From positions 143,158,001-143,222,000 of the forward strand of contig OZ024740.1 in NCBI GenBank assembly GCA_964016885.1: 64,000 nucleotides of DNA, written 5' to 3'. Origin of the DNA: Eledone cirrhosa (taxonomy: Eukaryota). Below the pieces are notes generated by a model. That model saw nothing but the letters and a program-made list of their open reading frames with translations, did not search any database and was not told where the DNA came from. Positions within the stretch are counted from its first letter, which is position 1. Every line of letters starts with the position of its first letter. The position numbers and the translations under genes were made by a program. Positions 1 to 48,058 of the stretch are shown here, in pieces.

Positions 1-3000
1 GGATCTTCTTTTGTCTTAAAACTGAGATTAGTTGGGGGTATTTTGTCTTCTGTTGTTTTCAGTATGTTCTGGTCAGTTCTTTTCCCACTTACTTCATGTT
101 CAGTAATATATGTAAAAGACAAATTCTTAGCAACTGTTTGAGTTCCTTCAGTTGTTTCTATCAAAAGTGTTTTTGGTTTCAGGAATGAATCCCCCTCCAA
201 AAAATCTAATTCTGATACTTCTGTTCTTCCAGTGATTCTCTTCCTTTCTTTATCTATATCTGTTCCTTTAAAAAACATCTGCCTGTTAGTGTCACTTGTT
301 GGTGCCGTCTCTTCTTTCAATGTTTCAGAAATGTTAACATGCTTTTCCGTGCTCTTTAAAGCAGTTGTTGATTGAGGAATGGTTGGTTTGTGTGAGATAT
401 CAGGTTCTTCAACCAGAATATCAGGCAAGATCTGATGTAGTTGATGGATGCCTCTGTTAATTGGAGAAGCACCCAAATGATGCTGATATTCACTGTATTC
501 ATCTTCTGGTGTAAGGTGTATCTTTTTATCCTCCAACTGAGGTAATGACTCTCCAAGTTCTATCTCGCCTAGTAGATGTTCACCCTCATCCACATACGAT
601 GCTTGGGATATTATCAGATCCTTTTCGGTGTCTTTCTTTAAAATATCAATGTTTCTATCATCAGCCTGTGATATTGTTGGTTTAACTGTATGTCCACCCA
701 GTCCCCATTTCCCTATAGTTCCTTCAATGTATACAGAACTGTTTATTCTATCATCATGCATTTTTTCTATAGTTTCAGTACTGTTCTTTTTATCTCTCCA
801 GGTTTCCTCAGGCAGCAGATTATAAGAATTCTCATCGTATATCAAAAATGCATTTGCTGAGGTTAGCTTTGGAATTTCTGTGGCATTTGCATCATCAGTC
901 TGTAGCATTTCCCCTAAAAATGTTGGTTCTTTATACGTTTGGCTTGAATTGAAATCAATAATAGGAATTCCTTCTAAATTAGCCAAACTGCCTTTTGATA
1001 CCTGTTGGTCTTCCTTACCAAATGTAAGCAATCTTTGGTGAGTGCTGTCTTTACTTATTTTGACAGATGTATTATCTAAATCTGAATAAGATGGCTCCAA
1101 AGAAATTCCATAAAAAAATGAAGACTGATTTGGTTCAGTTTCAATCTCTTCTGTAGTATTATCTATCTCTTTTAATTGACTTTCCATTCCTTTTATGTCA
1201 ATATCTTTTGATGTTTTAGAGATATTCAGAAATTGTGGTGAGTGTGTTGAGGTGAGTGGAACATCTGTATCAACAAGTCGTTCTTTTGTTTCTGTGAAAG
1301 AAACATTTTGAATCATATTTCCCTTACTGGGATAAGACCATTTGCGAACAATATCTTTTATGTTGGTTACTAAGCTAGGCTGAAATGAGTTAAAGATTTT
1401 CTTTGGAGTTACAGAAAAAATGTTATGATCAGTTTCTTTAAGATCTATTTTCTTGGCATCAGTTTTGTTTTCAACAGTGGTTTTATTTTGATATATAATT
1501 GTTGCAGATGTTGATAAGATATTACTTGGGGATACCTGAAATTTATTTGGTAAGTCTTTTTCTGTTACACCCAGCGGTTGACCAATGAAATCAGAATAGT
1601 AGCTGCTTCCAGAAGAATAATGTTTCACATCACCATCATCAACATCTTCTACTAATTCATTATCATTGGGCTTGGCAATGTCTATTTCTTGTGTTCTACT
1701 ATCATCTTCATCATCATTAATATCTCTTTGGCTTTGTAAGAGCTTTGTATCACCATGGCTATCTTGAAATAACTTTGCTTCTCTGTGGCTGTGTTTTGAG
1801 TGTTTCCCTTCCCAAAGACTATCATGTGAGGGGTTCTTATCTCCAAGGCTATCTTGCGATTGCTTTCCTTTCCATAGATTAGAACGTAAGTGTTTTTTCT
1901 CTCCATTGATACCTTGTAACTCTATTTTTTCTCTAAGATTATCACGTGTGTGTTTTTTTCCTCCATGGCTATCTTGTGAGAGTTTTCCTTCTCCTTGACT
2001 TTCGTACACTTTTTGAAATATATCATGTGATAAATATTTGTCTAATACAACTGAATCAGATTTCTCTTGGAAATCACTGCCAAATAATCTTGGTTTGTCT
2101 ATGTGTGTGTGTTTACTCTTGATCTTCACCTTTTCAGTATCCTTGCCCTCACTAAGGGGGTGTTTCCTTGGACTTAGAGGATCATTTAAATTCATTTCAT
2201 CGTTATATTGTGTTAATAAATCTGAATTGTCTTTCATTAACTTATGCTTTGGTAATTTTCTATTTGTTAAACCTGAAGAATCTAAATGGTTTCTTTGATT
2301 ATCAAATTTAACAAGTACACCATCTGGAGCACTGTTATAAGGAACCTGAAAAGCATTTTCAACAGGATCCATGTGGCTGATATCTACTTCCCCTAAGTAA
2401 TCATATGGATCATATACACTCCCATGGTAATTATATACATTTTCATATTGGTGATTTTCAATAATATCATTGAGTGGATGTCCATTCTCAGTAGGATACT
2501 GAACACTGCCTTGATTAGTAGGATCAAGGTCTTTTCCATTTCGTCCTTGAGAATTTATATTAATATTGTGTTTCTGGTGATCATTATTTACTTCTTGTTG
2601 AACACTGAAATCAATTCCACCCTCATAGAGTCGAGGAATATTTTCATCAAAGTAATTTTTAAATTGTGTTTTACCTAATTGTTCATTGACTAATGGATAA
2701 CTGTTTTCGCTACCCTGACCAGCTAAGTCATAATTAGAAAAGCTTTGGTGTAGTTTTTGATAACTAATTTTATTTGTATTGTAATCTTTATCATTTAGTG
2801 ATACATTTTTCTCCAACCCTGATTCCTCATAGGCTAATGTATCGTTCCATCTTGGATTTGAAATGGCGATGTCGAAACTTGTATCTCTCCAATTTTTACT
2901 ATTTTGCTCAAATGTGTTGTTTCCGAAATCTCCAGAAATATTTTCATCTTCCAACAGTCTGCCACCTATTTCTGGTGTCTCCAAACCATTATTATCAATG

Positions 3001-6000
3001 TCTAAACTATTCTTCAAGTAGACACCTTCCAAGGCAACCTGTGTGTCATCATGAACATCAATTACATTTGGTTTTCCTTTATTCTTTTGCCTCACTAGGT
3101 CAATGTCAATTACTTCTTTATCAGTTTTCTTCTTATGCTCATTTCTGTTAAGAAGTTCTACTTCATTTTTGTCATCCCACAGTGGAGAACTACTTGATCT
3201 GTTCATTACTTTTATATTAAATTTGTTAAAAGCTTTATTTGGATCTGAAAAGTTTTCATGGACATAGGTTTTATGTATTTTATGGATGTCTGAATGTGAA
3301 GATTTATTGACAATCTTATCCATTTCATCTTTTAAGTGATAATATAATCTTTTGTATTTTTCTGGCAAATTTCCTTCCTTTAAAAGTTTATAAATCCGCC
3401 AATACTGACGAGGTATATTTTGAGTTTCTAACCCATGTAAAGAACTTTTCCAGTTTCTATTTTTCCTCCATAACATTTCTGAGCTATGAGAATCTCTAGG
3501 CAAATAGATTTCCTGGTTTTCTTCTCGTCTGCCTTCTCCAAAAATTTGACCCTTTCTCCCATAGGTTCTATAAAATTCTTGACCTGATCGAACTCCTTCT
3601 AAAGACCGGAGGGAGGCATCATCTGTCATCTTGTCACGATTACGTAAATGACTTTTGAAAAGGCTGGAAGTTTTCTTTTTCATGGCATTTTTCAGACGAT
3701 TCTCATTTAATGTCCGTTTGCTTTCAGTGGAGCCTAATAAGTTATGAGAGTCAGCGGCTGTGACAAGTATTTTGTTATGTAAACTGTGTGAACTTAACTT
3801 CCATTTTTTGTTTGGATAGTTTAGTTCATCTGCCATACTATTGGAGTCTAATTGGCTATCCTCAACTGAATCAAATGTATCATCGTGGTTTAATGGAGAC
3901 TGCCCATAGAGAGCACTTATTGAATTGTGTGACATAAGTGGGATATTTGATTTATTTGGCTTCACTTCAGCATTACCCAACACATATAAATTGTTCAGGT
4001 TATTTGGGTTATTTCTCTTTATTGTGTTTACTATATCTGATGTAGAATGTGTATCTTCATTATCATGTGGTATCCTATTATTATCATGTTTAGAAAAATG
4101 TTTCTTGTACATTATATCTTTGTACATCACTGGCAATTCTTCATTTTCATCATCTGAATCGATTCCATATAATTTGTCCTCTTGATATATTCCAGTGGGA
4201 AGCTGTATCTTCGTTTTCAATTTATCAAATTTTGGATAGTGATAGTCATCAATGATATGATCACTTTCAATATCGGGGAATTCTTCTTGTGACCCACTTA
4301 TTTCTCCATAAACAGGAGACATCTTTTCATGATTTAGTTGAATACGAGATACAGTCTTATACGAATCGTCTCTGCCTCTTGCTAATAGTGAATGAAATGC
4401 TGGTTGTTTATTAGTGTATTCCATATTTTCTTGCACTTCTCTTTCTTCATCTGCGCCCTCATTGAAGTCATCTTTATCTTCATTCTGTTTGTCTACAAAA
4501 CTTCGGATATCTTTTAAAGTGTTTAAATAGACAGGATTTAAAGAATCAACATGTTGCCTATCTATATTTGGGGGTTTATATTTAATTGTATTGATCACTA
4601 AATTATGATTTGACTGACTGTGTTCACCAGAATCGTCATCATCATCATCTTTCACACTAGAAACCACAGTGAACACATTTGGAATTCCATGTAAGGGATC
4701 TTGTCTGTAATCATCAACACTTTTTGGATATTCCAAGGGTATTTTTCTATATTTATTGTCATCCTCAATCGACTGGGAGTCACTTTTCTGGGAATCCAAT
4801 GGATCTGTTTTAATGGTATGAAGGTTTGAATGAATACCCCGGATTGCATTATGATTTGGGGGGAATCTTTCTAGAAAATTATCCCGAGGGAAATCATCAG
4901 ATTTATTCTCAGCTGATTTTGATTTCTTCAATGATTTAATGTTATCTCTTTCCAAATTTGATCCATTTAATGTCCAGTCAATATCAGGAATTTCTACTAC
5001 TTCTCTAACACGGTTACCAAACAGCTCAGTATCAGCTTGGAAGTGAATATTTGGGTATAATTTCCGAAATCTTTTCCTTCTAGGAATGTTATTATTCCCA
5101 GTACGACGAGCTTTTTTGAAAGGATGGCCAATATTTTTGTATCTAAATTTATTTTTCATTTTACGAGCATTGCTTTTATATCGGTTTGTGGCAGGGCGGG
5201 ATTTGTTATTAAGTCGAAAACGCTGGTCTTTTCTGAGAGTTTTGCTTTCTGATATTCCTCTGTGGTAATCTTCAACATGTTTACTAATTCCTCTACTGGA
5301 TGCACGGATGTTGAAAATGTTTTCTTTAGTTCCTAATTCAATCAAAAGATTATTCAAAGAACTTTTCTTTTCACTTAATTGCTGCAGCGGTTTGAAAGAT
5401 GTCCGATAAAGTTGGTTAGAGCTGTTTACACTAAAAGATGGTCGATGAAGCTTATCAGAGCTATTTAAACTAAAGGAGATATCGTTTATAGAAATTGAAG
5501 TTTTGGTGGAATTGTTACGGGTGTTTTTTGTTATTTCATTGTTCTTCGTGATATTTGAAGGTGCCAACAAATGTTTTTTATTTGTCTCATTTAAAGGTGC
5601 ATATGAATTTTTTCTTGGAGTGTCATTTAGAGGTGCATATGAGCTTTTGTTAGACATCTGTTGAAAACTAGAATCCTTATTAGTATTCATATTGACTGCT
5701 TTAACAAATTGTTTGTGTTTGTCTTCAGGAAACTTTTCACTTTGCTCCACTGCTGGAGTGGGCTTGATAGTGCTTACTGGTTTTTCACCATCATTATCTA
5801 GTATAACTAATATTCCATTTGAGTATGAGTGATCAGCCTTCATTATTGGACTAGCCTTTTTGCCTTCAACAAAATCCTCTGAAGAGGATTGCTTGAGCTG
5901 TTTTTGTTCTTCATTATCAACATTTTTCTTTGTCTTTGAATCATTATCTAAGACTATTAGGAGGGTATCAGGTGAATCATGGTTTTTGTGTATATTTTCT

Positions 6001-8107
6001 GGCAGTCGTTTTTGATTATCTTGTTCTTCTGATGTTTCTTCTACTGCATTCTCTGAAGAATTAATATTGTCATCTTGGTCATCATCATCTTGATCCTGTT
6101 TCAACTGACCCAAAGGTACAATTGTACTTTCACCATAAAAATGATTTACTTCATTTACTCTGCCTGTATCAAGGGCAACATCTGATCCATGCATATCTAC
6201 ATATGAAGGTGGTTCTTGATAATCTGTCTCATCTCCTTGCTCTTGCTCTGTAGAAGTGTTTTCATCAGAGCTGTCTTCGTTATTATCATCAACATGTATA
6301 TTGGGATATTGCTGATAATAATCCACTTTCCCTTGATCTAGTTGATCATTACCAGTATAAGGATGATAGTTATATTGAAAACCCCCAGCAATATCCATTG
6401 AATTTAGACCTGGATTCAATGAGTGGTAGTATGAGGGTGAAAATTGACTTTGATCACTTTCTGATGTATCTTCTGAAGAATCTTGATCTTCTGTTCGGGG
6501 AGCTGGCATATCTTTTCTATGGTCACTTGAAATCATGACAAACTGAGAAGGCTGACCAATATTTGCACGGAAATTAGACCAAGGTGGTGTTTTTCTGAGC
6601 ATGCCATATCGGTTTGGTCGTCGATTTACTCTGAACTGATTTCTAAAAGTCTTAAGAGGAAGTTTGGTTGAAGGCAAATGAAGTTTTCGTCTTTGGATTA
6701 ATCGTCTTTGCTTTTGACGCAAATTAAATTGTTGAGTAAAGTCATATCGAGGTGTCCGAAAATTTGGTTTCATATCATTGTAATTTTTAGTTCGTATTGT
6801 AAATGTGGAAGGAAGTCGTGTTTGGGTCTGGTGGGGAGAATCATAGTTATCTTTATCTTCTGCAGATGACATCATAATCTCATTATCTATATCATCTTTC
6901 TTGTCTAGTTTCTCATCTTTTTGTCTTTTCTCATTGTCTTCATCTATTTTGATTTCAGATGAATTTTCATCTTCTTTCTTTGTTTTGATATCAGGTTGTG
7001 ATGTGACAGGAATATCTCTTAGATATTGCATATTAGTTTTGAAGCCAAAAGATTTCTGATGTTCAAATTCAGGATAAATCGTTTGATAAGAAGAGCCTCT
7101 ATAATGGACAATATCACCATTATGATTAAACATAAATGCATTTGGTTGATGTGTTCCAGAATCAATCATATTAGGAGATGTCATGGCAAGAAATGGTTGT
7201 TTATTCTTCCCTTTCACAAGTTTTTGTTGCACAACTTGTTCCTTCTTATATTTCTGTGATCTTTGATTTTCTTCCATAGAATATTTATAGTCTTTCTTAT
7301 AGGGTTTTAAGGGAGATGTGTTTCGATGGCTAGGATCATTCTTTAAAGGAACATGTTTCTCATTGTATTTCCCATCTGACCAAGTATTCAACAATGTGGT
7401 ATTCCTGGAAGTTGGAGTATTAAGATATCTATTTGAACTTTCAGTTGTTACTTTTTCAGGAGCACGACTGAGTCCAGTCACATGACTTGTCTCAGCTACT
7501 TGAGTTTGTTCTGGTACACGATTTATCTGATAAGCATGGTTCTGTTCATTTTTGAATTTAGCCATTTTGCGGTTTTTAAGCATTAAATGTTGAATAAGCT
7601 GACGTTGCTTAACTTTTCCTAATGTTCTAAACTTTTCCATTTGTCCAGTCTTTAAAAGTAGTTGTCTGTACATCTGCAAGGTATCAGTCTTCTTGTTATG
7701 CACGTTTGACCAGTCATTTTTGTTTAAACTCATCATTTTCATCGGTCTTTTGTAGTTTTTTGTGTTTTGCTCTTTTCGACTAACATCTTTCTCTGTTGAA
7801 TTTCTGCCATTTACTATTTGTTTATCTTTATTATTCCGCTTTCTTGTACTTCGCAGAGAATTCATTGTGTTATAATAATGTCTCTTGTTGGATTCTTGTG
7901 AGCTGTCAGCACTCTCAGTATGGGCTGAGGCTGAATTTTTAAAGAATGATCTCTTCATTGGTTTATGACCATCCCTCTTGCTCTGGGACCCTTGAAATAC
8001 CTTCATCCGATAGTTTAAGTCATAAGGAATAAATTCTTGTGTAGCAACACTTGAATCTTTTGAATCTTTCTCAAATTCAGAGTTACTCCAATTTCTTCCA
8101 TCTCCAC
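1..8107 (-). CDS. Giant coding exon (at least 8.1 kb, at least 2,700 codons, runs off the left edge) of an uncharacterised low-complexity, probably secreted protein
   Basis: The minus frame whose plus-strand triplets start at multiples of 3 had no stop in every segment I translated (3-780, 1683-1860, 3003-3060, 4623-4680, 5043-5280, 6243-6300, 7143-7260, 8070-8105). The ORF track lists no terminated ORF in this frame, as expected if it stays open to the edge. Acceptor tttgcag|GT at 8108/8107. The exon starts (G)GDGRNWSNSEFEKDSKD. No transposons or microsatellites interrupt it. Confidence 0.92.
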
Positions 8108-8744
8108 CTGCAAATCAATCAGAGCAAGATCTTAATCATAAAACTATAGAATGGTTTGTATTATTACAATTGGAATTTACACAGATTAATTATATTGTTA
8201 CTGATTCCTTGACCAATATTCTGATAACCCACTAGCTCAGCATAGATGATTTGATTGTTTAGTAGTGACGCAGATATAATAAAAACAGTATGGATCCTCA
8301 CCTGGAAAGTTTCTCTCTCAGGCATTGTCCTGAGCATGGTTGTTTCTATGGAAGACCAGCTGCTGTTCAACATGCAAGTCCCCACTCTCTATACCAACAA
8401 TGTTATTCAAAGAAAAGGTAAGAGGTGATATAATTTGGGATGAGTGTCAAGGCATCTCTTCTTAGGCTTTAGCAATTCTGCCAAGCCACCAGCATAAAAG
8501 GCAAAGTTGAATTTGCCAGAATAATACAAAAGTGTAAAATAGAATAATAAGACAAATGAGGAATAAAACTGAAAAAAATAAGATTACTAATTTTACTGCA
8601 GTCTCTCCTCCTCATAAATCTTCTGAACAATTTGCTAAGATATTGTATATATCAACATTTTAGGCACTAAGGAAGAGAGCAGCACAGAAAGGGAGAGGAG
8701 GAGAAATGTTTGGAACAGTCAATTGTAAAGTCAAACGATTAAGA

Positions 8745-9900
8745 TTTTCAGGCTGCGTTGCCCAAGCAATTTAGGGGTCTTGGTCTCCGTAAGTGTTCGT
8801 CCCTCTCTCTCCCCTGCTTCCTTTCTTCCACCCACGCTTGCTCCACCCTGGTGAGCAGCATCCTCTCCTCTCCAGCATGGACTAGTTCCAACAGGGAGTT
8901 GGGTGAAGCACTCCAGCAATGGAGTGAGTTGGGCTTGTCTCTTCCTGAGAAGGTGGAGGACAGTCGAAGTCAGAGAACTTGGGACAATATAAGTTCGAAG
9001 GCCACCTTCGACTCCCTCTTCGTCCAGTCAGATCAGTTTGCAAGGTGCCGCTTACTATCTGCCAGCACCAAATACTCAAGCGACTGGGTTAATGCCCTAC
9101 CCATGGCCAATGTTGGTGGCCTACTCAGCCTGGATGAACTTCATGTCTCCATCGCTCTCAGAGTGGGAGCTGAGGTCTGCATGGGTTTGAGGTGCCGATG
9201 CAGCAAACTCCTCGACTCCACAGGCCTCCATGGTCTTTCTTGCCGCCTGAATGCTGGCCACTTCGCGCGTCACATGGAGCTAAATCTTATTCTCAAGAGA
9301 GTTTGGCCTGGGCGAACATCCCCTCAGTCTTGGAACCATCTGGGTTGTCCAAAAGTGATGGCAAAAGACCTGACGGCCTTACCCTGTGCCCCTGGTCGAG
9401 AGGCAGGTGCCTTGTCTGGGACATCACTATTAGTGACTCTTTAGTAAAAGGCGAAAGATTTATCCGCTCGGGGTGAGGAGAAACCAGAGTTATTAGTGAC
9501 TCTTTTGCTCTTTCCCTCATCCTGGATGCTGCGGTTAGGATGAGAGCCACAGCTTCCACAGCCGAGTAAGACCCTCAAATACTCTGATCAGTCGGCAGCT
9601 ACATTTTTCAGCCCGTGGCTTTCAAGACATTTGGGGGGAGTCGGGCCACTGACTGCGAGGTTCCTCTCTTCACTGGCAGCTCGCCTAATAGAGGTAACTG
9701 GCGAATCTCACGAGGGCGCTTGGTTGTTCCAGCGCATTAGCCTCGCCATCACCAGAGGCAACACTGCGAGTGTGCTGGGTTGCCTCAAAAGTCATTAGAG
9801 AGGTTTCCCAGTACCCCTCACTGCTGTCTTTTGCTCTGGTGTTGGCTCGGTTGTTCACCTCTCCCTTTACATTTTCTTTAATATTGTAACATTAAAAGAA
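8745..9900 (+). mobile_element. 5'-truncated non-LTR retrotransposon 3' end with restriction-like endonuclease (CRE-like)
   Basis: GLGLR; zinc knuckle CRC..D..GLH..SC....GHFARH; LEPSGL..DGKRPDGLTLCPWSRGRCLVWDIT; C-terminal FQPVAF..G..G...WLFQRISLAITRGNTASVLG. Frameshift near 9297. Confidence 0.8.
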
Positions 9901-10712
9901 TATATCTTTCTGAAAGAATCGCGAGCAATTTATAATGTTATCTAAGCATTTGTAATGTTATTTATGTATATATTTAAAACATATTTGTTATGTTATTCTA
10001 CTGTAAATTTATTTATATGCTCTGTTTATATTTTCATTCTGAAAGAATTACAAATTGAAAATGGATTTTTCAAAAGAAAAAAAAAGTACAGACGTAAAAT
10101 TGTTGAATGTTTAAAAAAAAAATCATAGGTGTCTGTAATTATAACATACTTATAACATATGTCTCAGACATAAGGTGGGAGAGCTACACTTATTGGTCTA
10201 TCTATATATTGTTATCTAACAAATGGTTAAACAAATTTTAGTGTTTGAAATCTGCTGTGAATGCAAATAGAAAGCAGTTCAGAATATTTATTAATGTGAA
10301 GAATTTAAAAAACAATATTTCATAACTGTTTGAAGTGAACAACAAACTGATTGTAGTCTGGTAAAGTATATTAATTTCTGTTTGATTTCAAAATTTACAT
10401 TGTTATGTTTGAAACTTCACATGAAATTTGACAAGCTAGTGTCATTTGTTCAAAGTTGGTCTCGGAATGAACAAAAAGGCTGAGAGTAGTGATTTTTAAA
10501 CGAATTTGAATTCAATCTCATATGTGATTTGGAAACAGTACTTGTATTCACAGAAGCAAAGTATCTTTAATAGTACATTGATGGTCTAGTGAATATTCAT
10601 TGTATAATTACAATTTGGGGACTGTTGAGTAGTAGTGGAATCATATAGCTTGGATCTATTCATATCAGATAATGATTGTCCAAAATTATATAGGTTTTTT
10701 TCTTTAAATCTT

Positions 10713-11034
10713 ATAATAATTGTTTCTACTTTTTGGCACAAGGCCAGCAATTACCCAGTGCATTACTGGTACTTTATTTTATCGACCCCGTAAGGATGAA
10801 AGGCAAAGTTAACCTCGGCGGGATTTGAACTCATTTGAACTTATAATAATTGTTTCTACTTTAGCCACAAGGCCAGCAATTACCCAGTGCATTACTGGTA
10901 CTTTATTTTATCGACCCCGTAAGGGTGAAAGGCAAAGTCAACCTCGGCGGGATTTGAACTCAGATCGTAAAGGGACGTAACTATGCTGGAAAGCATGGCG
11001 TCCGACACTCTACCGATACTGCCAATCCACCGCC
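10713..11034 (-). mobile_element. tRNA-derived SINE family A: a full copy (10843-11034) in tandem with a 5'-truncated copy (10713-10833)
   Basis: A-box TGGCAGTATCGG, B-box GAGTTCAAATCC, body CTTTGCCTTTCATCCTTACGGGGTCGATAAAATAAAGTACC and an (ATT) tail. The same sequence recurs elsewhere in the window. Confidence 0.8.
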
Positions 11035-11684
11035 TATAATAATAATTATAGATTAGGAGGAGAAATGCTTTTGCAACAATTTAAAGAAAACTTTTGCTAT
11101 GATGGTCATAACCCTTTTGGTTGAAGGGAGGGTTCACCTAAGTTATATTTCTTCTTCTAGTTTTTCTTCTAACACTATTAAGAGCTGGGTTATCTCTTGT
11201 CAGTAAAACTATTATGTTGTAAAGCATCACTGTAATATTTAGATGCATTATGAAATACAACTTCATTAGAAAATAGATTGAAGATACATAAAGATATATA
11301 TTTAAAAAGATTATCTATGATATTTTTGGAGTGAGTCATTCGGTTTCCTGAAAGGTGAGAATTGTGGCTCATTAAGGTTAAACATTTCATCAAGCTGGCT
11401 GATTATCATATAATTTGATTTAGTTAAATTCTTTGGAAATTTTATGAAGTTCTTTTCTGAATCTTTCACTTATTTATGATGAAAGTTTCTGAGTATCAAC
11501 AAACTACCATCTGGGTTTGATGAAATAAAGTAGCAGTAATTTGCTGAAAGCTAAGGTAACTGACGATACCATTCCTTTATAAATATTTGATCTTGTGTCA
11601 ATGTAAGAAATTATTATCTGTATTACAAAATTAATATTGAGGAATACCACCTCCATATATATATGTATATATATATATATACAC

Positions 11685-12474: not shown

Positions 12475-12489
12475 TATATACATATATAT

Positions 12490-12810: not shown

Positions 12811-12818
12811 TATATATA

Positions 12819-33947: not shown

Positions 33948-34063
33948 TAACAGATTAAAGTATAAGCAAAGAATCGCTGCTTTCACTCTTAACGGGATCT
34001 TCTGAAACTAAAATAAAAAATCAATCTGTGAACGCAGAAGTAAATATTTTGAAAAACGTTACA

Positions 34064-34105
<42 letters not shown>

Positions 34106-35559: not shown

Positions 35560-38495
35560 GGGGTAGAGAGGGCTCATGAGTCCAGTAAGACATCTTCTCT
35601 AATGCTGGTGGCACGAATAAAAGCACCCAGTCCATGCTGTAAAGTGGCACTGGTGTTAGGAAGGGCATCCAACCAGTATACCAATGCCAAAACAATTATG
35701 AGCACAGCAACAAATATATATCGCAATAACTGCGTAAACAGCAATAGCACTAACCATGTTAGGGCTGCGCACGGTAGTGGAGTGGCTGGTGCGGCCATGT
35801 GCGAGAACCCCCCGACCGTCTTCAAGCAATCACACTACAGGAAAAGGAACAAAAATATGAAGACGTCGCATCTCAGAGTTGCAACACTTAATGTTGGCAC
35901 TCTCATAGGTAGATCTGGTGAAATAGCGGAGATGCTGGAGAGCAGGCATGTGGATGTGTGCTGCATGCAAGAGGTGAGATGGAGAGGTGCCTTTGTGAGA
36001 CTAGTCGTAGGTAAACATCTTAGCTATAAGCTTTTCTGGGTAGGTAAGGATGATGGGTTAGGAGGAGTAGGCCTTTTCCTGGCTGAGAGATGGATCGATA
36101 AGACAATAGAGGTAGTTCAAGTTAATAATAGAATAATAAAGCTTAGATTAGTTGTAGGTAGGAGACTACTGACAATCATCTCGGTCTATGCTCCCCAAGC
36201 AGGCCTAGGTAAAGAAGAGAAAGACTGCTTTTATGAGCAACTTTTACAAACAGCCGCAATGACAGAGGACAGAGACATCGTTATGCTAGCAGGGGACTTC
36301 AATGGTCATGTTGGACAGCTCCAGGATGGTTACACTGGGGTACATGGTGGGCACGGTTATGGCTCAAGAAATGAGGAAGGAGTGAGACTTCTTGAATTTT
36401 GTGATGCAAGTACACTAACCATTTGCAACACTAACTTCCAGAAACCTGCCAACCACCTAATAACCTACAAATCAGGCATGCACATAAGCCAGATTGACTT
36501 CTTACTAATTAGGCAGCAGGACAGGCAGATGGTGTCAAATACCAAGGCATACCCTGGGGAAGAATGTACCCCACAGCATAGGTTAGTCGTTAGTGATATC
36601 TCAATAAGCAAGAGATGGAATGAGACATACAGGAAGGTGTGGAGAAGAAAGGTCTGGAAGCTAAAAGACCTTTCACTAAAATACAAATTTAGGAAAGCCC
36701 TTCAAGATGTGTATGATGAAAAAAAATGTTGTTTAAGAGTCGTATGACATAGATGATAACTGGAATTTCTTACGTGACAGCTTACTGCAGGCTACTGATG
36801 ACGCTTGTGGCTGGAGTAGAGCTCCAACCAGACAGAGAGTGACCTGGTGGTGGAACAGCACGGTAGATAGGGCCATTAAAGACAAAAGACTAGCATGAAA
36901 GGCTTGGAAAAAGGGTGGGAGTAGGGAAGGATATACAGTTGCTAAGAGAGAAGCTAGACGTCAGGTGTACTTAGCACGCAGGGAGGCTGAGAGTAGGAGG
37001 TTTGCCAATGTTCTGCGATGGGAAGATCAGAGGCGTGCGGTGTTCCACATTGCAAGGCAGTGTGTCAATGCAAATCAGGATGTTGTTTGAGATAAATGTG
37101 TCCAGAATGATGCCGGTGTACTTAGTGTCACGAATGATCAGAAAAAGGAGGCCTGGAAATGTCATTATGAGAGACTGATGAATGTGGAGAACGAATGGTA
37201 GAGAGAGAGAGAAATTACCCTCAGTAGATCCGACAGAGGGACCAGCTATTGAGATTGACGAATATAGGGTCCAAGAGGAGATTAAGGAAATGAAAAATAG
37301 TAAGGCCACTGGACCATCGGGGATAGTTGCTGGGATGCTGAAGGCATCAGGAGACGTAGTCACTAAACTGGTTGCACGCATCATCAATCAGGCTATATAA
37401 GACTGGTGCAGCAGTATTCTCATAAATTTCTACAAAGGTAAAGGGGATGCTCTGGAGAGGAGCAATTATAGGGGTATAAAACTGATGGATCAGGTTATGA
37501 AAGTGGCAGAAAGGATATTAACACAACTAATTAGAGAAAGGGTCAAACTAGATGAGATGCAATTACAAGAGAGGTTCTTAGAGAAGGATAAGCCACTATA
37601 CTTAACCTTTGTTGACCTAGAGAAGGCCTTTGATAGGGTACCCCGATCTGTCATCTGGTGGTCCCTAAGGAAACTAGGTGTTGAGGCTTGTGAGGCTTGT
37701 GAGGACAGTGCAAACTTTGTTAAGAGGTGCTGTCAGTAAAGTGAGGGTAGGAATGGAGTTTACTGAGGAATTCCAGATACAAGTAGGGGTGCATCAGGGT
37801 TTGGTCCTCAGCTCGCTCTTGTTCATTATAGTCCTCCAAGCCATAACAGAGGAGTTTAAGACTGGCTGTCCATGGGAACTTCTCTATGCTGACAATCTGG
37901 TTCTTATAGTAGAATTAGTAGAAGAGTTAGAGAATAAATTCTGGCTATGGAAACAGCAGTTGGAATCAAAAGGACTGAGAGTGAACCTAGCTAAGACAAA
38001 AGTGTTGATGAGTAGAAAAGAGGGCAAAACTGTGATTCCGTCAGGGAAATGGCCATGTTCGATTTGCAGAAAAGGAACTGGCATAAATTCTATAAAGTGC
38101 ACACAATGCAGATCTTGGGTACACAAGAGATGTAGTGGGATAGCAGGCAAACTAACAGGTAGGGAGAAATACGTATGCAGTAGATGTACAGTAGAAGTTG
38201 CATTGATAGACACATTTTTCAAATGCAGGTGGGTGCTATAGAAGTGGTGGATAGCTTCCGGTACCTAGGAGATCAGATTAGAATGGGAGGAGGGGGTGTT
38301 CTGAGGCCATAGTATCTAGAATAAGGATGGGTTGGAAGAAGTTTAGGGAGCTGCTTCCTCTGCTGACAAAGAAGGGTTTCTCCCTGCGTACGAAAGGCAG
38401 GTTATATGATGCCTGTGTGAGGAGCTCGATGCTGCATGGTAGTGAGACATGGGCAGCAACTGCACAGGATATACGACGGCTAGAGAGAAATGAGC
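35560..38495 (+). mobile_element. RTE-clade LINE, family B, with complete endonuclease, disrupted RT and no 3' end
   Basis: ATLNV, CMQEVRW, GGVG, SVYAP, GDFNGH, QIDF and QHRL in the 381-aa ORF. Frameshifts and deletions follow. Confidence 0.92.
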
Positions 38496-38639
38496 AGGAG
38501 GGAGTAAGCAAGTTTGACATGGATGAGGCGTATAGGATATTTAGTTGGTGAGGACAGAGTATTAAGACTGGGGAGGGGGATTGAGGAGGGGGTGAAGAGA
38601 AGATTGGTGCAGACGTGTGTCCTCCTCATATTTGTTTCA

Positions 38640-38950
38640 TTCTGTGTATATAGGATGGTGGGTCTTCTGCCGTACAGCATAACACCAGAGATTTTGATCC
38701 TGTATCATCTCCTTTATGTGGTTTAATTGAGCAAAATCAGCTTTTATCACTTCATCCCAAGTTTTCCTAGGTCTTCTTTTTCCATAATGTTCATTAACTT
38801 TGAGTACTCTGTGCCTTTTGAAATAGCTGTCATCCTCCATACACATCACATGTCCATGCCACAGCAATCTCCTCTCCTGCACGCTGCATCTGACTCCTTA
38901 TATGCTTAGTTTCTCACTCAGTTAACTGACACTCTGTCGTTCATGCACAC
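38640..38950 (-). mobile_element. RTE C-terminal fragment
   Basis: ERRLLWHGHVMCM...RPRKTWDEVI. Confidence 0.75.
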
Positions 38951-39045
38951 TATTTTTTTGTGGCAATAAAACTACTATCTAACAGGATGGACTGGGTACT
39001 TTTGTTGTTGTAGGTGGAACTGGATCAGTATGGCACCAGATCAGC

Positions 39046-39080
<35 letters not shown>

Positions 39081-39083
39081 TAT

Positions 39084-39210
39084 ATATGAAAAGATTCAGG
39101 ACCCCGATGGCTCAGTGCCAGCCGTTTCGACAGCTAGATCCAAACTCTCTTCGAATCTAGCTGTCGGAACGGCCAGAGCTCAGCCGTTGGGGTCCTGAAT
39201 CTTTTCATAT
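39084..39210. repeat. 127-bp imperfect palindrome, MITE-like
   Basis: atatgaaaagattcaggacccc / ggggtcctgaatcttttcatat termini and gccgtttcgacagctagat / atctagctgtcggaacggc inner arms. Confidence 0.85.
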
Positions 39211-39504
39211 TACCCACTCTACTACCCCAAATATCGAGTACTCTGGTGGGTTTTAGTCTACCTGGTTTTTACCACACCCTACCTGATATATATATATATA
39301 TATAGTCAAGGGTTGTGGAAAAGTGTTTATTAATAATTATTGGTAATCCTGACACGTGTTTCAATACATTAGGTAATATCATATCCAATATGAAATCTGG
39401 ATTATTAGACAATCGATTACTTCATACTGCCAGGGAATATCGTAACTGCATCTCTTCAGAGAAAATATAAGAATAATTAGTTGAGGAAAATAAATATATA
39501 TGAT

Positions 39505-39800
39505 AAAAGAGTACCCAGTCCACCCTTTAAGGTTTTTATGCAAGTGACATGACAAATAACCACCCAGTCCCCTTTGTACGATGGTCATGTTAGTGATACA
39601 ACAAAAAGCACCCAGCCAATCTTGTAAAGTGGTCATGTTGGTGACATGACAAAAAGTACCTGGTCCACCCTGTAAGGTTGTGCTTGTGACATGATGAAAA
39701 AGTACCTAGTCTAACCTGTTAGTCGGTCATTTTAATGCTATGATAAAAAGAACCCAGTCCATGCTGTAAATTTGGTTGCTGTTAGAAAGGCATCCACAGC
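39505..39800 (+). repeat. Degenerate array of about 6 copies of the 47-bp unit
   Basis: Recurrent aaaag(c/t)acccagtcca..ctgtaaag..gtcatg, ending in gttagaaaggcatcc. Confidence 0.7.
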
Positions 39801-40614
39801 ATGCTCAGGGAGCCTTTTATGGTAGCACTCGTGTTATTTCATTATAATAGGAGTGTGTCTTCTCACAATAGAAGATAGGAAGGGTGAGTAAGCACCTGGT
39901 TGTTGAGGTGGCCATGAAGAGAATGAGTGATGTCTGGCTGTATATTGTGGGATGTGTCTGGGTTTTCATGCTGGCATGGGTTTGACAAGGTAGAAGAATC
40001 ATGGATGAGTGAAAGGGAGTAGCACAATGTAGGGGTGCATTATCTTTCCATGCTGGCATGTGTTGGATGAATGAGGGGGATGACAGATGTGAATAGCACT
40101 TTTCCTCTTCCACATGTTCTATAGACTGAGTGTCCTTCAATTCTTTATGCAGTTGTCATCCATATGCATCAAGTGTCCATAGCGGAAGTCTTCTCTATTG
40201 TACACTGTATCTAATCCCTCTTATGCATAGATTTTCTTTTAGTTTGCTATCACTTCACAGTTCAAGCACACTATCATGGTTGCTTAATTTCTTAAAAATC
40301 TTCACAGATCCTTTACATTCTAGGTACATGTCTCAGTTCCATGTAACACTGCATGGTATAGGTATAGTTAATAACAAATGTGTTAATTGTGAAGTGAGTA
40401 TTTATTTATTAAATGTCTAATCGCTTACTATCTTTCTAAGTCTCCTGCCTAGTTGTATATAATTTGTTACAAGATGTTAAATATTGTTGTTTCCATAACA
40501 ATATCATTTAGAGTATGCATTAATGTTTTTTCACTCCTAATTTTATTGAGCTGTTATGGTACAAAAGACCAAAATGATTGTATTTCGGTCTAAATTTATG
40601 TTTTATATATATAT

Positions 40615-41035
40615 ATTTTGAAAGAATTTTTTAAGTTTTAAGAATTCTTTAAATTTTGAAGAAAATTTTTTTTAATTTCCCACCACAAAGGGACCTGCGA
40701 CAGACATGTTGAAACCCCCCCCCCCCCCCACCTCCACACATGTGTGTATTGTTATATATATACACACACACCACAAAATAAGAGAAAATTACTCATTCCA
40801 GAAGTTCCTGTCTGAGAGCCACTACTGATACCCTGCGGTGGTTTTTTTTTTTATTTTGAAAGAATTTTTCAAGTTTTAAGAATTTTTTAGATTTTGAAGA
40901 AAAATTTTTTTAATTTCCCACCACAAAGGAGCTTGTGACAGACAGACTGAAAAAAAACATACATACACACACACATACAACTCCCCCCCCCCCCCCACAC
41001 ACACACCCGTGTGTATATTGTTATATATACACCTT
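40615..41035 (+). repeat. Diverged direct duplication (about 160-180 bp, copies start 238 bp apart)
   Basis: attttgaaagaatttt..aatttcccaccacaaagg..gacagac..poly-C..tattgttatatatac occurs at 40615 and 40853. Confidence 0.8.
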
Positions 41036-41638
41036 TACACTATACACACACTCCCTAAAACCATATTCCAATAATAGAATTTCTTTTACAATCCTACTGC
41101 TGCCATAGAATTTGTCTCTAGCTTACAATCCCCCCCCCCATTTGAACTCTTGACCAGTCAATTAACACAATTAGATATACACACACATATTTACAGAATA
41201 TTTCCTTTGCCCCCAAAAAACAATTTTGTTCTGTGAAGAAACACAACTACCAACACAACTGCTACTATCATGCCTATACACCTGTGTATACACAAAAATT
41301 AATCCTCCAGTCCACTTCTGAGCAAGGAAGATGGGAAAAAAAACCTACTCCAACACTCAATTTAGTTTTTAATTCCTATTAATTCTTTTTAATTGTAATA
41401 CTCAACATTTGATAAGATGAAATTTAATAATACATCGAAACCGGTAATATTTTATATACTTTATATACATTATAAAACTTTTTTTTGTCCTTCTCATTTT
41501 TTCAATAATGTCATCTTTTCAATAATGTCACTTTGAGGAATCAAAGAAAGGAAAAAAAAGGAAAACAGACCCTAAAATATATTTTCTGTGCTATTTCCAG
41601 CTTCACCTTTTCTCTCTCTTTCTCTGTCTCTCTCTTTC

Positions 41639-41687
<49 letters not shown>

Positions 41688-41839
41688 ATCTATATATATA
41701 TATATATATACACATATGCTACTGATGCCTTGAGAAAACTAGAAAACAACACCAAATTTCAGCACTAAGCATATACAAAATTCGAAATAACAGAAGTAAG
41801 CTTTATTCCATCATTTTGTTTTTATATTTTATGTTTTTA

Positions 41840-41954
41840 TGTTCAAATCTCGCCAAGGTTAACTTTGCCTTTCATCCTTACGGGGTCGATAAAATAAAGT
41901 ACCAGTAATGCACTGGGATAATTGCTGGCCTTGTGCCAAAAGTAGAAACAATTA
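41840..41954 (+). mobile_element. SINE family A, 5'-truncated
   Basis: Runs from the B-box through the tail and matches the other copies. Further fragments at 49730-49810, 57923-57990 and 58613-58710. Confidence 0.75.
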
Positions 41955-41985
41955 TGTTTTTCTGTTTTTTTCTGTCCAAATTCTA

Positions 41986-42044
41986 GCTGTCTGATGAGGT
42001 CATAGCTGTTGCATAATAGTTATCACTGAAATATATATAACAGC
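41986..42044 (+). ncRNA. Minimal hammerhead ribozyme motif with intact core
   Basis: gcugu-CUGAUGA-ggucauagcu..aguuaucacu-GAAA-U-AUAU-A-UA-acagc. Confidence 0.75.
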
Positions 42045-42299
42045 GACTATGAATAAACAAAGTTAATTCTAACCTGTTGACTTACACTTATTTTATATGT
42101 ATATATGAATGTATATGAATTGAGTTTTGAGGTATTTTTTGAAGGCATTGTGACAATACAATCATTTTAAATGATTAGAAACCCAGATGCGCATAAGGAA
42201 TTAAAACAGTGTTTTATTCAAAATTTTCAGTCTTAAAAGACATCCATCAGTGAAAAAAAAGACCTTATAGTGATAAGGTCTTTTTTTTTTCATGCTAAG

Positions 42300-42640
42300 A
42301 ACTTTTTAGTGTTGGTTAATGAAACATGGGCCTTCACTGCAGAAGACTTGTGGAGACTAGAAAGAAATGAGTTGAGTATGCTCCGATGGATATGTGTGCA
42401 TGAGCAGCATAGCATAAGCAAACTGAGAGAAAAACTTGGCATAAGAGCAACTGGTTGTAGTATGCAAGAGAGAACGCTGCATTGGTATGGACATGTGGTG
42501 TGCATTGAAGATAACAGCTGCATAAAGAAATGCTGAGAAACCCCAGTGGAAAAGGTAGATCCAGGAAGATATGGGATGAGTTTGTGAAGGCTGACCTTAA
42601 GAAACTAAATCTCACAACAGAAATGATTAAAGAGTGTTAG
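42300..42640 (+). mobile_element. RTE C-terminal fragment
   Basis: ETWAFTAEDLWRLERNELSMLRWIC...WYGHV. Confidence 0.75.
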
Positions 42641-43029
42641 GGCTGGGGATTTTGCCTGCCCTTCCCCCCTCCACCACAGCTCACCAACAGCTATACCTGA
42701 CACCATTATAACCCTCACTGCATACACCCCATGCTCCCTCCCAATACATGCGTCTAGCAGCTGTCCCCTTGTGAAGTGATTGGTGATGGGAAGAGCCTCC
42801 AGCAGTGGAAGGCCTGCCAGACAAAGGGTCAGGTGGACCCTTCAGTCATGCCAAGGCATGACAGCTACCCTAGTGTAAGTGATCTACATGATAATCACAC
42901 TCAGTACATGCTGTAAAGTGGTTGGTGATAGGAAGGGCATTGAACCATAAAAAGCTTACCAAACAAAAGGTTGGGAAGACCTCAGTTGTGTCAAAGACAT
43001 GACAACCCCCCCTGTGCATGACTGTACAT

Positions 43030-43800
43030 AAGTGAGACAACAGATCCCTGGCCTGTGTGAGAGATCAGTAGACACCATTTTAGTATTGACTATGTAGACC
43101 CATCCAACCTGTAGGCTACATATTTACAGTTTCTCTTGAACCATACATTGTCAGTTCTATCTTGTGGTGCAAGAAAATTGTTAGTGTCACTGTTACATTA
43201 TGGATGAGTTCTATACTATTTGTGAAACAAAGATCTAGGACATTTTCATCCCTTGTTGGGTGAAATTTTACTTGTACTATGAACAGCATTTTTGTAAGGT
43301 TAAGCAGTGATATTCCTGAGAGAAATTGGCCTTTGGGCCATTTCACACTGGAGAGGTTAAAGTTTCCCCCAGAAGACATATGTTTATGCTTTAATATAGT
43401 TAGGTCAGCACTTCTATTTTTTTTAGGCCATCTTCATGATTTGGGATATCTGGTGGATGATATATGGGGAATATTACCCTTTTTAATTTGCTTTATGTGT
43501 ATTACTGCTGTCTCACAAACTGAGTTGGAATATGGCAGCATGAGTAGAGTCAAGCATCCTCACAGTTACACATTGCAACTCCATCATGAATTCTTTCTCT
43601 CCTAGTATGAAAGTACCTAATATGAAAGTATGTTACTTTGGTATGTGTTTTCTGCATCTGCTAGTTAGTTGATAGGTGCGCTTCTGTAAGTGCTATGCAT
43701 GTTACTCAATTGTATGTAGCAGGGCTTCTCAGATAAGTGATTTTACATATGTTGTTGATTTTTACAAGGCCTCTGGATTTCAGAAGTAGCACTGATGTGG
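43030..43800 (-). mobile_element. Decayed CR1/L2-like LINE endonuclease region
   Basis: GNFNLSSVKW...HPTRDENVLDLCFTN. Confidence 0.6.
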
Positions 43801-44512
43801 ATTTTGAGTGGCATTTGGGGAAGGGGTAATGGTGCCCACCCTAGATCTATTTCTTGCAATGATTTTAAATGCTGGTGTGCATTATTTTGGTTTTATGTCT
43901 GATGCAACAAGGCCAACTGTCTTATAATCTTCTGTGCCATACTTTAAAATTATTGTTGCTCACCTTTTGCAGTCTATACTGCATTTACATATTGTGTCTT
44001 CCTTATATGCAAAATCAGTTATCAGGTTGTTACCTTGGCCAACATTGAAATAGAGAGGGGAAATGGCAGGGAATATATATGTCATCATCATCATTTCATT
44101 TTACCTCCACTTTTCCATGCTTGCAAGGGTGGGACGGGAACTGATTTATATATATATATATATATACAGAGAGAGAGAGAGAGAGGGGGGGGGGATTATT
44201 ATTTTACACCTAATATAATTTGATTCCTCGAAATCAAATACAACCCCTTTAATAGGAATTTTGTACTTTATCTACACAGACATTGTGAAGGTACATGACC
44301 TAGTGATTATGGTTTTACTCTTAGACCAGAAGGCACATTTTGTTCTTGAGCAAGATGCTTCATTTCACCTTACTTTTCATGATAGGAAATCAGTAAAACA
44401 CCTGAGAAACCTCCTATGAGATGCAACCTCATAGGCTGGCAGCTAAACCTGCATAGGTGTAAGCTGCAATTTCTTTTCATTTTACTTTATCCACACCTCC
44501 ATTATACTCTTT

Positions 44513-44513
44513 A

Positions 44514-44566
<53 letters not shown>
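44513..44566. repeat. (GAT)n microsatellite
   Basis: Read directly from the sequence. Confidence 0.95.
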
Positions 44567-44888
44567 ATCTTAAAAGAAAACATGCTGTTTATTGTAGAAT
44601 TGAGTAATGGGGGTATGGTGGGGGGGGGGGGTAAATCAAATCAATTCAAGCAACAAAATGTTTACAAAAGAAATTCTTTTATTTATTTACTGGTTTCAGT
44701 CATTAGGCCACAGCCATGCTGAGGCATCATCTTAAAAGGATTTTGTTGGTCAAATCAACCCCAGTATTTATCTTTTCAAGTCTGGTACTTATTTTATCAA
44801 TCTCTTTATGTCAAACTGTTAAATTACAGGGCATAAACTCACACACACACACACACACATGCACACATGCACACACATGCACACACAT

Positions 44889-44945
<57 letters not shown>

Positions 44946-46741
44946 CAATGATATTAAATAAATGGTAACTATATTTATAAAACCATATTTATTTTATTAT
45001 ATATATTTCAAGGGTACCAAGACACATTGGTATGCTTTCCTCAGATAAAATACAAAGTTTGTTTTATAGAGACATACCCATGAAAATCTAAGAAATTAAA
45101 TACCCCTTCTACTTATATATATATATATATATAACAGCTTTCTGCAGTTTCCATCTACCAAATTTCACTCATGTGTCTATAGTAGAAAACACAGGAGGAG
45201 TGAACCCAAAACCCAGTAGCTGAGAAGTGAACTTCTCAACAATATACCTATAAATGACTAAAACCTAAAGCCAATGTAATAGCTAATGGAGAAGTAAAAA
45301 TATATTGCACAAATCTGATAATCCTAATGAACAGTAATCAAAATATATCTTACATGATAAATACTTTCATGTGATGCATGCTCCACATACAGTTATAAGA
45401 AGTTATCTTTTGCCAGATATAGCCTATATAGCCTTTTTTGAGTGACACTTGAATGGTCTGAAATTGTTATTTTATTAAATTTGTAATCTTGTATTAAAAT
45501 AAAAGCCTCAATTTATGACTCAGACATTGAAACAATTTCAGATAAGATTAAATGCCAGAGTAAGAAAAAGGTTATCTCATGTTTGCTTAAGCTTTCCTCA
45601 AACAATCATAACTACAAATATATATAACGTCTTAAGCACAACCTATTAAAGACTGATCCTTATGATATTCTTACTAGCTACCTCTTATCGTAAAAATGAT
45701 AAGGCAAAGATTACATAGCACTTTAATAAAGACTAATTTGTTACAACAAACTTAGTATTATTTTCTATGATAATAGTGACTTAATATTTGGCAATATGAT
45801 AAATAACAAGAATTGTAATGTTGTATAGAAGATAACACAAAATTAGCTAAAGATTTAAAATTATATTATAGCATGGAAGAAATTTATTTGTAGTTGACTG
45901 TAAACATAACAGCAAGTGCCAATTCTCGATAATAGAAACAAAAGAGCCACCAGTTATTATTAGGATTAGTGCAATTGGTCACCTTAACCCTTTAGCATTT
46001 AAACCAGCTGTATCCAGCTATAACTCTCTCACCTCTTTCTGTTCAAACTGGCTGTAACTGGCCACTCATACTGCTGTTAAGTTATTGTTCTCAAAATAAA
46101 TAATATCAAAATCTCATAGATCCAATATTATGTGAGATAATTATGTAAGATAAAACCTTTACCATGAAAATATAATAGGACATATAGAGAAATGTAAATG
46201 CTAAATGGTTAAATGTTTGATAAATTTGTTCCAAGCTGTTATTTATTGTTTTTAGTAAAAGAAAAGAAATTTAAATCAGGAAACCTCACATTTTAAACTA
46301 TTGACCCTTTCATGTAATCATTGACCCCCTCCCCACCAAACATATACCAAAATAAATAAACAAGTAAATCAGTAAACAGAATACAAAATAAATAAACAAT
46401 AAACACTAATTGGGTATAAGTCAGAAACCTATAGAAGCAAATTGTATTTTATTGTATTTTCATTTCTTATTCAGGTTTTAGTCCAAAAGTTCAATCTACC
46501 ACTCTGGATAGTCCCATTGACTCCCAGGGGGTCAACATAGACCACTTTGGGGACACCCTGCACTAGATGTACATTACAAATTATTGATGATTCATTAAAT
46601 AAATTAAATAATGACAGTAGTAATTACAAACCAACAGAAACAACAACATTGAAAATATGAAAAAAACTAAAATAAATAATTTTGGATTGTTTTCTGAAAA
46701 AAATGAAACATGAATGATGAAATAATTATCGCATTACTCAC

Positions 46742-46820
46742 CACTAAGATGGAGAATTGCAGCTTGAGTAAATAGTAAGAAAAGATGAATCTTCATGCTG
46801 TAGTTATGTTGTAGAAGAAC
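46742..46820 (-). CDS. 79-nt coding exon (VLLQHNYSMKIHLFLLFTQAAILHLS+G), signal-peptide-like
   Basis: Acceptor ttttgcag|G at 46821/46820 and donor G|gtgagt at 46742/46741. The phase-1 end supplies the G that completes GGT with the GT starting the 8107 exon. ATG at 46796 has A at -3. Confidence 0.82.
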
Positions 46821-47983: not shown

Positions 47984-48058
47984 AAGCATTGCTATCAATA
48001 CCAATAAAGGAACCAGATTGGCAGACATGCGGAATGCTGAGGTGGACCATTTCTGCAT
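47984..48058 (-). CDS. Putative first coding exon (MQKWSTSAFRMSANLVPLLVLIAML)
   Basis: ATG in aaaATG context, 25 codons, donor CTT|gtaagt in phase 0. It joins in frame to the 46820 exon and forms a continuous hydrophobic run LVPLLVLIAMLVLL. Confidence 0.65.

Follow-up and report, generated by a model that had tools for sequence, protein, structure and literature searches.

What is encoded by a minus-strand frame that runs for more than 8 kb without a stop through repeat-rich DNA and is still open where the analysed sequence ends? The frame lies in a 64,000-nucleotide (nt) stretch of the 3.0-Gb genome of the octopod Eledone cirrhosa (G000:C1:143158001-143222000; hereafter the window), and an earlier interpretation of the letters, the sequence-only reading, had described it as a hidden gene for a signal-peptide-led, disordered protein with no recognisable domain. 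We find that the frame belongs to the third exon of a candidate 13-exon gene, whose product is probably a secreted scaffold protein in which a very long chain without cysteine precedes a disulfide-rich head. Positions are given in window coordinates, with negative numbers for positions past the left edge (add 143158000 for the assembly coordinate). Flanking sequence was examined as well, 198 kb on the left side of the window and 99 kb on its right.

A giant exon without cysteine

The evidence supports exon 3 as a real, selected, single-copy coding exon. Translated on the minus strand from 8105 to 3, the window gives 2,701 codons with no stop and no Cys, and the other two minus frames over 3-8105 have 168 and 375 stops; in-frame stops in this interval are what the sequence-only reading had named as evidence against itself. 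The window part of the exon (1..8107, minus strand), in which basic and acidic blocks alternate, starts at the acceptor at 8107, and the frame stays open past the left edge until a stop at -6679; shortly before it, at -6607, lies a phase-1 donor (GTGAGT). With that donor the whole exon measures 14,715 nt (G000:C1:143151393-143166107) and encodes 4,904 whole residues; the claim of an exon above 8 kb stands, but about 8 kb is not its real length. At the local base composition, 4,904 codons would stay open by chance with a probability of approximately 1e-170, and about 99 Cys are expected from base composition where none is observed, which extends to the entire exon the Cys-poor character reported for the window. 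The residues S, T, N, D, E, K and R make up 54% of the window part, in keeping with the earlier description. Repeated 15-mers amount to 0.3% in the window part, compared to 31% in the 38-kb intron next to it, and the exon is indeed nearly free of the repeats that fill its surroundings.

Coverage in three short-read runs (X1-X3) includes introns along with exons, and the runs look like DNA from a single sample, possibly the assembly's own. In all three, a 10,589-nt short-read contig covers window positions 1-8803, with one or two substitutions and one 3-nt insertion relative to the window. Contig depth is single-copy (9-15) over positions 1-8500 and climbs to thousands beyond. Allelic differences in the gene fall at six sites, three of them synonymous (27% expected). 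For two segments of exon 3 tested against the genome itself, no paralogue is found.

The only homologue that we found is the Octopus bimaculoides protein A0A0L8GLG0 (UniRef, "Uncharacterized protein", 4,519 amino acids (aa)), in which 2,885 of the 4,253 columns aligned with exon 3 are identical (68%). This orthologue consists of exon 3 only: it starts at an internal Met corresponding to residue 133 of our model, reads through the same donor position into the intron, lacks the signal peptide and all of the Cys-rich domains, and has no Pfam family. Such fragmentation by automated annotation had been anticipated. The last 1,200 residues of exon 3, scanned by HMMER against 1.84 billion representatives, return one match, A0A0L8GLG0; a word search that used window-part residues 250-1450 retains the same protein alone out of 2,781 candidates. 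None of 169 candidates among proteins of 4,728-5,000 aa is a homologue, a weak negative, and the ESM Atlas has no usable match for two segments of exon 3. Both protein collections may contain few squid or cuttlefish sequences. Two Pfam assignments to the second half of exon 3 were rejected as artefacts of repeats or composition, TORC_C (E-value 1.2e-7, which clears its cut-off, on the tandem repeat, with no stretch passing) and End3. A literature search finds no paper with the accession A0A0L8GLG0 and none describing the gene in its title or the start of its abstract. Within the databases searched, exon 3 appears restricted to octopods, which agrees with the lineage-specific protein first proposed; a full-length match to a well-characterised protein, the other outcome named as counter-evidence, is absent from these collections, where the sole match is uncharacterized.

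Candidate signal exons

Two small candidate exons lie upstream of exon 3, across an intron of 38,634 nt (8108..46741, minus strand) in which fragments of long interspersed nuclear elements (LINEs) and simple repeats are abundant. Exon 2 (46742..46820, minus strand; 79 nt, phase 0 to 1) has its own ATG at 46796, which opens a complete 18-residue signal-like peptide with small residues at its end. Exon 1 (47984..48058, minus strand; 25 codons from an ATG, with a hydrophobic run at the end and a phase-0 GTAAGT donor) supplies an ATG further upstream and another hydrophobic run. At the sequence level, exons 1 and 2 and the acceptor at 8107 show the canonical AG/GT at their ends and fit together in one frame with phases 0, then 1, exactly as the sequence-only reading had it, and hydropathy and splice phases together fit a predicted signal peptide on a spliced mRNA. 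The exon 2 donor is one of ten distinct phase-1 donors that pass a lenient signal-like filter on the minus strand over 155 kb (two pass on the opposite strand); four of the ten are microsatellite read-throughs, and the acceptor and upstream partner exon were examined for the exon 2 donor alone. The exon 1 donor is one of five distinct phase-0 donors passing a lenient filter of the same kind on this strand over 155 kb, and the other four are microsatellite or GT-rich read-throughs. We favour exon 2 as the candidate signal exon and keep exon 1 as a candidate that may be untranslated or skipped. Starting from either ATG, the protein would be routed into the secretory path.

If translation starts in exon 1, the N-terminus could instead persist as an uncleaved signal anchor, and the chain would hold the VWD/VWA head far from the cell, as in a transmembrane mucin of reversed polarity. 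Compatible with such an anchor are the two hydrophobic stretches of exons 1 and 2 (the first has a 19-residue window of 2.19 on the Kyte-Doolittle scale and a short basic N-terminus before it), the A-rich context of the exon 1 ATG, and a C-terminus where no membrane segment stands out, the ten most hydrophobic 19-residue windows of the model (down to 1.62) all falling in residues 7-34. However, exon 2 alone encodes a textbook cleavable signal peptide, the first hydrophobic core has only about 14 residues, and exon 1 may not contribute to the protein at all. We consider the membrane-tethered spacer unlikely.

Composition and conservation of the long chain

The chain encoded by exon 3 is a conserved, charge-blocked polyampholyte. 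It is predicted to be disordered, as claimed, with FoldIndex below zero at 87% of positions. The variance of net charge per 50 residues is 24.7, compared to 13.7 +/- 2.0 in 300 shuffles (maximum 19.9), and similar charge blocks are present in the O. bimaculoides orthologue. By blocks, the isoelectric point (pI) goes from 9.9 (residues 53-600) to 4.4 (600-900) to 10.6 (900-1130), with a net pI overall of approximately 6.2 and Asp plus Glu at only 15%. The best-conserved part, residues 453-852 (5706..6905, minus strand), is 84-89% identical to O. bimaculoides and acidic, with stretches of DSSE type or rich in Tyr; conservation is lower at residues 2,850-4,450, mostly 50-60% identity. Residues best kept between the two species are Tyr (0.81), Asp (0.78) and Glu (0.77), with Phe also among the best, and the least kept is Ala (0.46). 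An invariant island of 40 residues (1062-1101; 4959..5078, minus strand) begins at a basic cluster and has no match in Pfam, in the ESM Atlas or elsewhere in the genome. That a predicted-disordered region of 4,900 residues keeps 68% identity, and 84-89% in places, points to a sequence-specific function and not to filler.

Approximately 94% of the long region lies outside near-identical repeats and is conserved, and the two species have not expanded the same tandem repeats. Ten near-identical 30-aa repeats (-1750..-2649, minus strand, residues 3338-3637) are mostly absent in O. bimaculoides, and where the window has a decayed 60-nt repeat of 3.5 copies (1786..1993, minus strand), a 10-aa His/Asp unit is present about 12 times in O. 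bimaculoides. N-glycosylation sequons number 63, compared to 48.4 +/- 5.9 in shuffles (two of 300 as high; one of eight patterns tested), and Ser in the context S-x-D/E is kept at 0.80 compared to 0.67 (p 0.04, uncorrected). A GRGDS at residues 3112-3116 (about -1075), which we take to be a fibronectin-type integrin motif, has its aligned place kept in O. bimaculoides within a region approximately 52% identical, and lends weak support to a matrix role.

The sequence-only reading had allowed for a granin-like product, and a wider version of that idea is a processed precursor, in the style of granins or egg-capsule proteins, in which the basic clusters are cut, the basic and acidic blocks co-condense as separate polypeptides, and the D-domain head is released like the propeptide of von Willebrand factor (VWF). 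An R-x-K/R-R site at residue 1061, immediately before the invariant island, would suit such processing, and of the 19 alignable KR/RR sites about 7, chiefly within the first 1,100 residues, keep a dibasic pair in the orthologue when counted by eye. However, dibasic pairs number 84, compared to 88.5 +/- 7.5 in shuffles, and R-x-x-R sites 6, compared to a shuffle mean of 9.8; the P4 Arg of the site at 1061 is a Met in the orthologue, and no repeated peptide or amidation pattern is seen. With dibasic sites neither enriched nor mostly conserved, the granin-like or neuropeptide-type precursor is not supported, and a processed precursor in the wider sense seems improbable.

Domain exons downstream

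Following the frame into the neighbouring sequence for its C-terminus, as had been suggested, leads to ten domain exons on the minus strand that end in a VWA domain and a TGA. Exon 4 (-10158..-10406) encodes a C8 domain (Pfam E-value 6.7e-6) with no VWD ahead of it, exon 5 (-24883..-25085) a TIL domain (3.1e-8), exon 6 (-26186..-26336) an E/EGF-like module with a weak match to EGF_3 (0.021), and exon 7 (-30291..-30392) an EGF-like module seen by its six-Cys pattern only, with no Pfam family. A VWD domain is divided between exons 8 and 9 (-34385..-34644 and -40480..-40760; 0.0068 and 1.2e-7), and is followed by a second C8 in exon 10 (-42031..-42296; 1.8e-12), a second TIL in exon 11 (-43528..-43724; 7.4e-5), E and EGF modules in exon 12 (-45517..-45724; 2.3e-4), and the VWA in exon 13 (-49077..-49639; 5.5e-36). 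Eight of the ten exons have a Pfam E-value below 0.01, and polyadenylation-type hexamers lie 120 and 145 nt past the exon 13 stop. The metal ion-dependent adhesion site (MIDAS) motif consists of D-x-S-x-S plus a downstream T and D. The VWA, which may bind a metal ion, has D-x-S-x-S at residue 5609 and, by eye, the T and D in alignments with collagen VI and PTMP1; its closest solved structures are collagen VI alpha-3 and the mussel byssus protein PTMP1.

The complete 13-exon model is free of stops and has AG/GT ends at all 12 introns, with a length of 5,782 aa over 97.7 kb. Its C-terminal order is C8-TIL-E-EGF-EGF-VWD-C8-TIL-E-EGF-VWA, about 826 residues with 62 Cys. The earlier statement that the product has no domain holds in the window, where Pfam finds no family, but fails for the whole model, because the window edge cut off the domain exons. 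Past the VWA, no further domain exon is seen by eye in non-repeat frames of at least 45 codons to about -120 kb, a search that small exons could escape. One candidate exon was omitted from the model, an 84-nt phase-1/1 exon at -8315..-8398 (minus strand; L002:1502-1585) with good splice sites, which would add 28 residues including two Cys; by eye it resembles a VWD tail, and a profile of paralogue tails run over 11,064 frames places it outside the top 12. No other VWD C-half exon is found from +160 kb to -190 kb, and none was found when a VWD exon was sought in the 38-kb intron and upstream. Because no VWD precedes the first C8 in that range, exon 3 occupies the place of a VWD, which it may have replaced.

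We think exon 3 is likely spliced to the C8...VWA exons. Exon 4, the nearest of them, lies 3.5 kb from the exon 3 donor and is of the internal phase-1 type. At -6607, 4,904 codons without Cys are followed by three Cys in the next 24 read-through codons; all three Cys of A0A0L8GLG0 also lie past the donor point, and both species read CEYKCFF there. The donor is supported because the Cys and the CEYKCFF read-through begin at the same point in both species while the stop is unshared, coming 24 codons past the donor here and 76 in A0A0L8GLG0. Two genes, with exon 3 terminal and closed by its own stop at -6679 and the C8...VWA exons a separate or relic gene, would account for the sole database record, which is built as a terminal exon 3 with read-through, and for the first C8 having no VWD partner. 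The 3.5-kb intron also contains AATAAA five times, and one of its nine ATG-to-donor peptides is clearly hydrophobic, with a weak donor (GTAATT). However, the read-through peptide is conserved at the donor and the stop that would end it is not, composition shifts at the donor, and all ten domain exons are undamaged and have matching phases, which makes two genes very unlikely.

Comparison with known families

The domain cassette, in order and exon structure, matches the octopod zonadhesin-like VWD-C8-TIL-E-EGF-VWA family, as found in octopus and other molluscan proteins annotated as zonadhesin-like or IgGFc-binding-protein-like. The model differs from these proteins in having 1.5 units of the cassette, placed after 4,904 predicted-disordered residues. 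By their defining tests it falls outside four better-known families: gel-forming mucins, FCGBP, vertebrate zonadhesin and VWF. Gel-forming mucins (MUC2/5/6/19 and spiggin) resemble the model in their signal peptide, their D assemblies and a low-Cys region of great length that a single exon encodes. The model departs from them in having fewer than three D domains, all placed towards the C-terminus; its long region is not of the proline, threonine and serine (PTS) type, and it closes, as modelled, with a VWA and then TGA, with no C-terminal cystine knot. For PTS regions we used thresholds of S+T >= 40% and P >= 5% per 100 aa; the long region reaches at most 34 S+T per 100, and no window passes. 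By the criterion of PMC4948705, a gel-forming mucin has three or more VWD-C8-TIL units. The model has one full unit and one without VWD. Neither half of exon 3 has a Pfam family corresponding to the N-terminal IgGFc-binding domain of FCGBP, and the GDPH motif of FCGBP VWD autocleavage occurs zero times in the model. The MAM domain of vertebrate zonadhesin is absent by Pfam, and a C-terminal membrane segment is likewise not seen. VWF has a D1-D2 propeptide, the order D'-D3-A1, three VWA domains, VWC repeats and a cystine knot. The model resembles its D'-D3-A1 in having a partial D assembly, a full one, and then a VWA, but has EGF modules between them and a single VWA, and lacks the D1-D2 propeptide, the VWC run and the cystine knot.

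Closer in design are some giant secreted proteins, the flatworm glue proteins Mlig-ap1 (5,407 aa) and Mlig-ap2 (14,794 aa) and the frog glue protein PRIT-Dg. In these, VWD/C8/TIL/EGF or FCGBP-type domains are accompanied by regions that are long and either charged or disordered, and that in their case are repeats (GRK-rich, with 221-255-aa or 18-aa units; PMC8621496, PMC11237159). We regard the likeness as an analogy of design. VWD proteins of limpet mucus also resemble the model in design (PMC7333891).

Paralogues and mucus proteins

Counting the gene itself, the genome has 22 VWD matches, 8 C8 matches and at least 150 VWA matches. At G000:C2:167.39-167.50 Mb there are four VWD-C8-...-VWA units, 34-36 kb apart, which by sequence appear to be recent tandem gene copies; two that were read are 96-99% alike, introns included. 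These two have the exon order VWD-C8-TIL-E/EGF-VWA, and the C2 unit has a stop directly after the VWA, as in our model; the C4 loci show the same order less completely. Paralogue exons are 23-57% identical to the model, depending on the exon. In 13 of 13 paralogue matches, as in this gene, the exon for the C-half of VWD ends with a phase-2 donor candidate. The sequence read on C2 (80 kb) and on C4 (120 kb) contains no giant exon. On C4, three clusters mix VWD and VWA exons (G000:C4:1.28-1.56 Mb, 144.4-144.7 Mb and 319.98-320.9 Mb), with C8 matches in the first two only, an expanded octopod family. At G000:C107:10286-152144 (plus strand) there are about 65 tandem single-exon VWA units, spaced 1.6-3 kb apart in two blocks of near-equal score, possibly one giant poly-VWA gene. 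Among proteins of 327-2,000 aa, the VWA exon has no match in 1,821 candidates at an E-value of at most 1e-10, a weak negative.

An O. vulgaris skin-mucus table assigns peptides to the zonadhesin-like LOC115209190 and LOC115209496 (PMC10138644), and by eye those peptides fit the VWD tails of paralogues in the present genome. In the O. maya oviducal gland, a zonadhesin-annotated transcript, which may belong to any paralogue of the family, is up at fertilisation (PMC8976471). A mineral-matrix protein of statolith or stylet, whose acidic S-x-E blocks would bind calcium and control aragonite and whose VWA/VWD would anchor it as in shell matrix or otogelin/tectorin-type membranes, would suit the acidic, DSSE-bearing best-conserved 400 residues and the well-kept Ser of S-x-D/E, but the net pI and low Asp plus Glu content, the lack of a chitin-binding domain among those found and the presence of paralogues in mucus make it highly improbable.

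Surroundings of the gene

LINE-type frames occur in the window at 30880-33693 (minus), 35554-36744 (plus), 56361-57410 (minus), 21608-22537 (plus) and 37678-38238 (plus). The one of 938 aa contains an endonuclease and a reverse transcriptase, with a PHD finger at its C-terminus; reverse transcriptase and PHD also occur together in two shorter frames. A tandem unit of 47-49 nt appears at 12653-12808, 24328-24919, 29029-29135 and 39500-39769; because a stretch of similar letters at L002 ~2500-3000 has a summed contig depth near one million, we assign it to a very high-copy satellite or a family like short interspersed nuclear elements. Downstream of the gene, at -63854..-68695 (minus), there are Helitron-like Rep/helicase frames, recognised by eye only. 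Two long plus-strand frames at -139548..-138724 and -132974..-131997, which we take to resemble the CUX1/CASP coiled-coil region, are possibly a neighbouring gene or a processed copy.

A proposed secreted scaffold

On balance, we think the gene probably encodes a secreted scaffold protein of octopus mucus or extracellular matrix, of about 5,750-5,780 residues and approximately 650 kDa before sugars. Its layout would be a signal peptide, then the 4,904-residue Cys-free predicted-disordered chain, then the disulfide-rich C8...VWA head.

Several results weigh against this proposal. All of the splice junctions were called from sequence alone, and the link between exons 2 and 3 spans 38.6 kb in a region where signal-like phase-1 exons are not rare (the ten donors above). 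No database protein with both halves was found, although the word-indexed collection ends at 5,000 aa, and the skin-mucus table (PMC10138644), as read over 3,654 rows, lists none of nine invariant exon 3 peptides. The ratio of nonsynonymous to synonymous allelic changes gives no selection signal, six sites being uninformative. Sequon Asn is kept no better than other Asn (0.64 compared to 0.70), and S-x-E sites are clear neither in number (45 compared to 36.2, p 0.08) nor in conservation (p 0.16).

In the secreted scaffold, the head, with its D assembly and a VWA with intact MIDAS, would bind the chain to other matrix proteins. The long, charge-patterned tail, in which blocks of pI about 10 alternate with blocks of pI about 4.4 over the first 1,300 residues, would act as a hydrated spacer and provide electrostatic or Ca/Mg-dependent cohesion in place of the O-glycan brush of mucins. 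As for its origin, the gene likely came about when the giant exon was added to an old VWD-C8-TIL-E-EGF-VWA cassette, taking the place of the first VWD. A bolder version, which we put forward only tentatively and regard as doubtful, is that in octopods the protein stands in for a mucin without being of PTS type, its zonadhesin-like head carrying a 560-kDa conserved, non-repetitive polyampholyte. The basic and acidic blocks would condense inside secretory granules and, once released, set as a gel or cement with neither Cys cross-links nor an O-glycan brush. The protein would then be the main structural component of an octopod-specific material, for example egg-string cement or sucker cuticle.

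The domain cassette is in itself ordinary; what is unusual is a conserved 14.7-kb non-PTS exon on such a cassette. The model gives a full-length candidate for a very large octopod protein known in the searched databases only as a fragment, and proteomes of mucus, eggs or suckers searched against fragment records cannot connect its two halves. If the protein is a component of a glue or gel, it would represent a new design for underwater cohesion.

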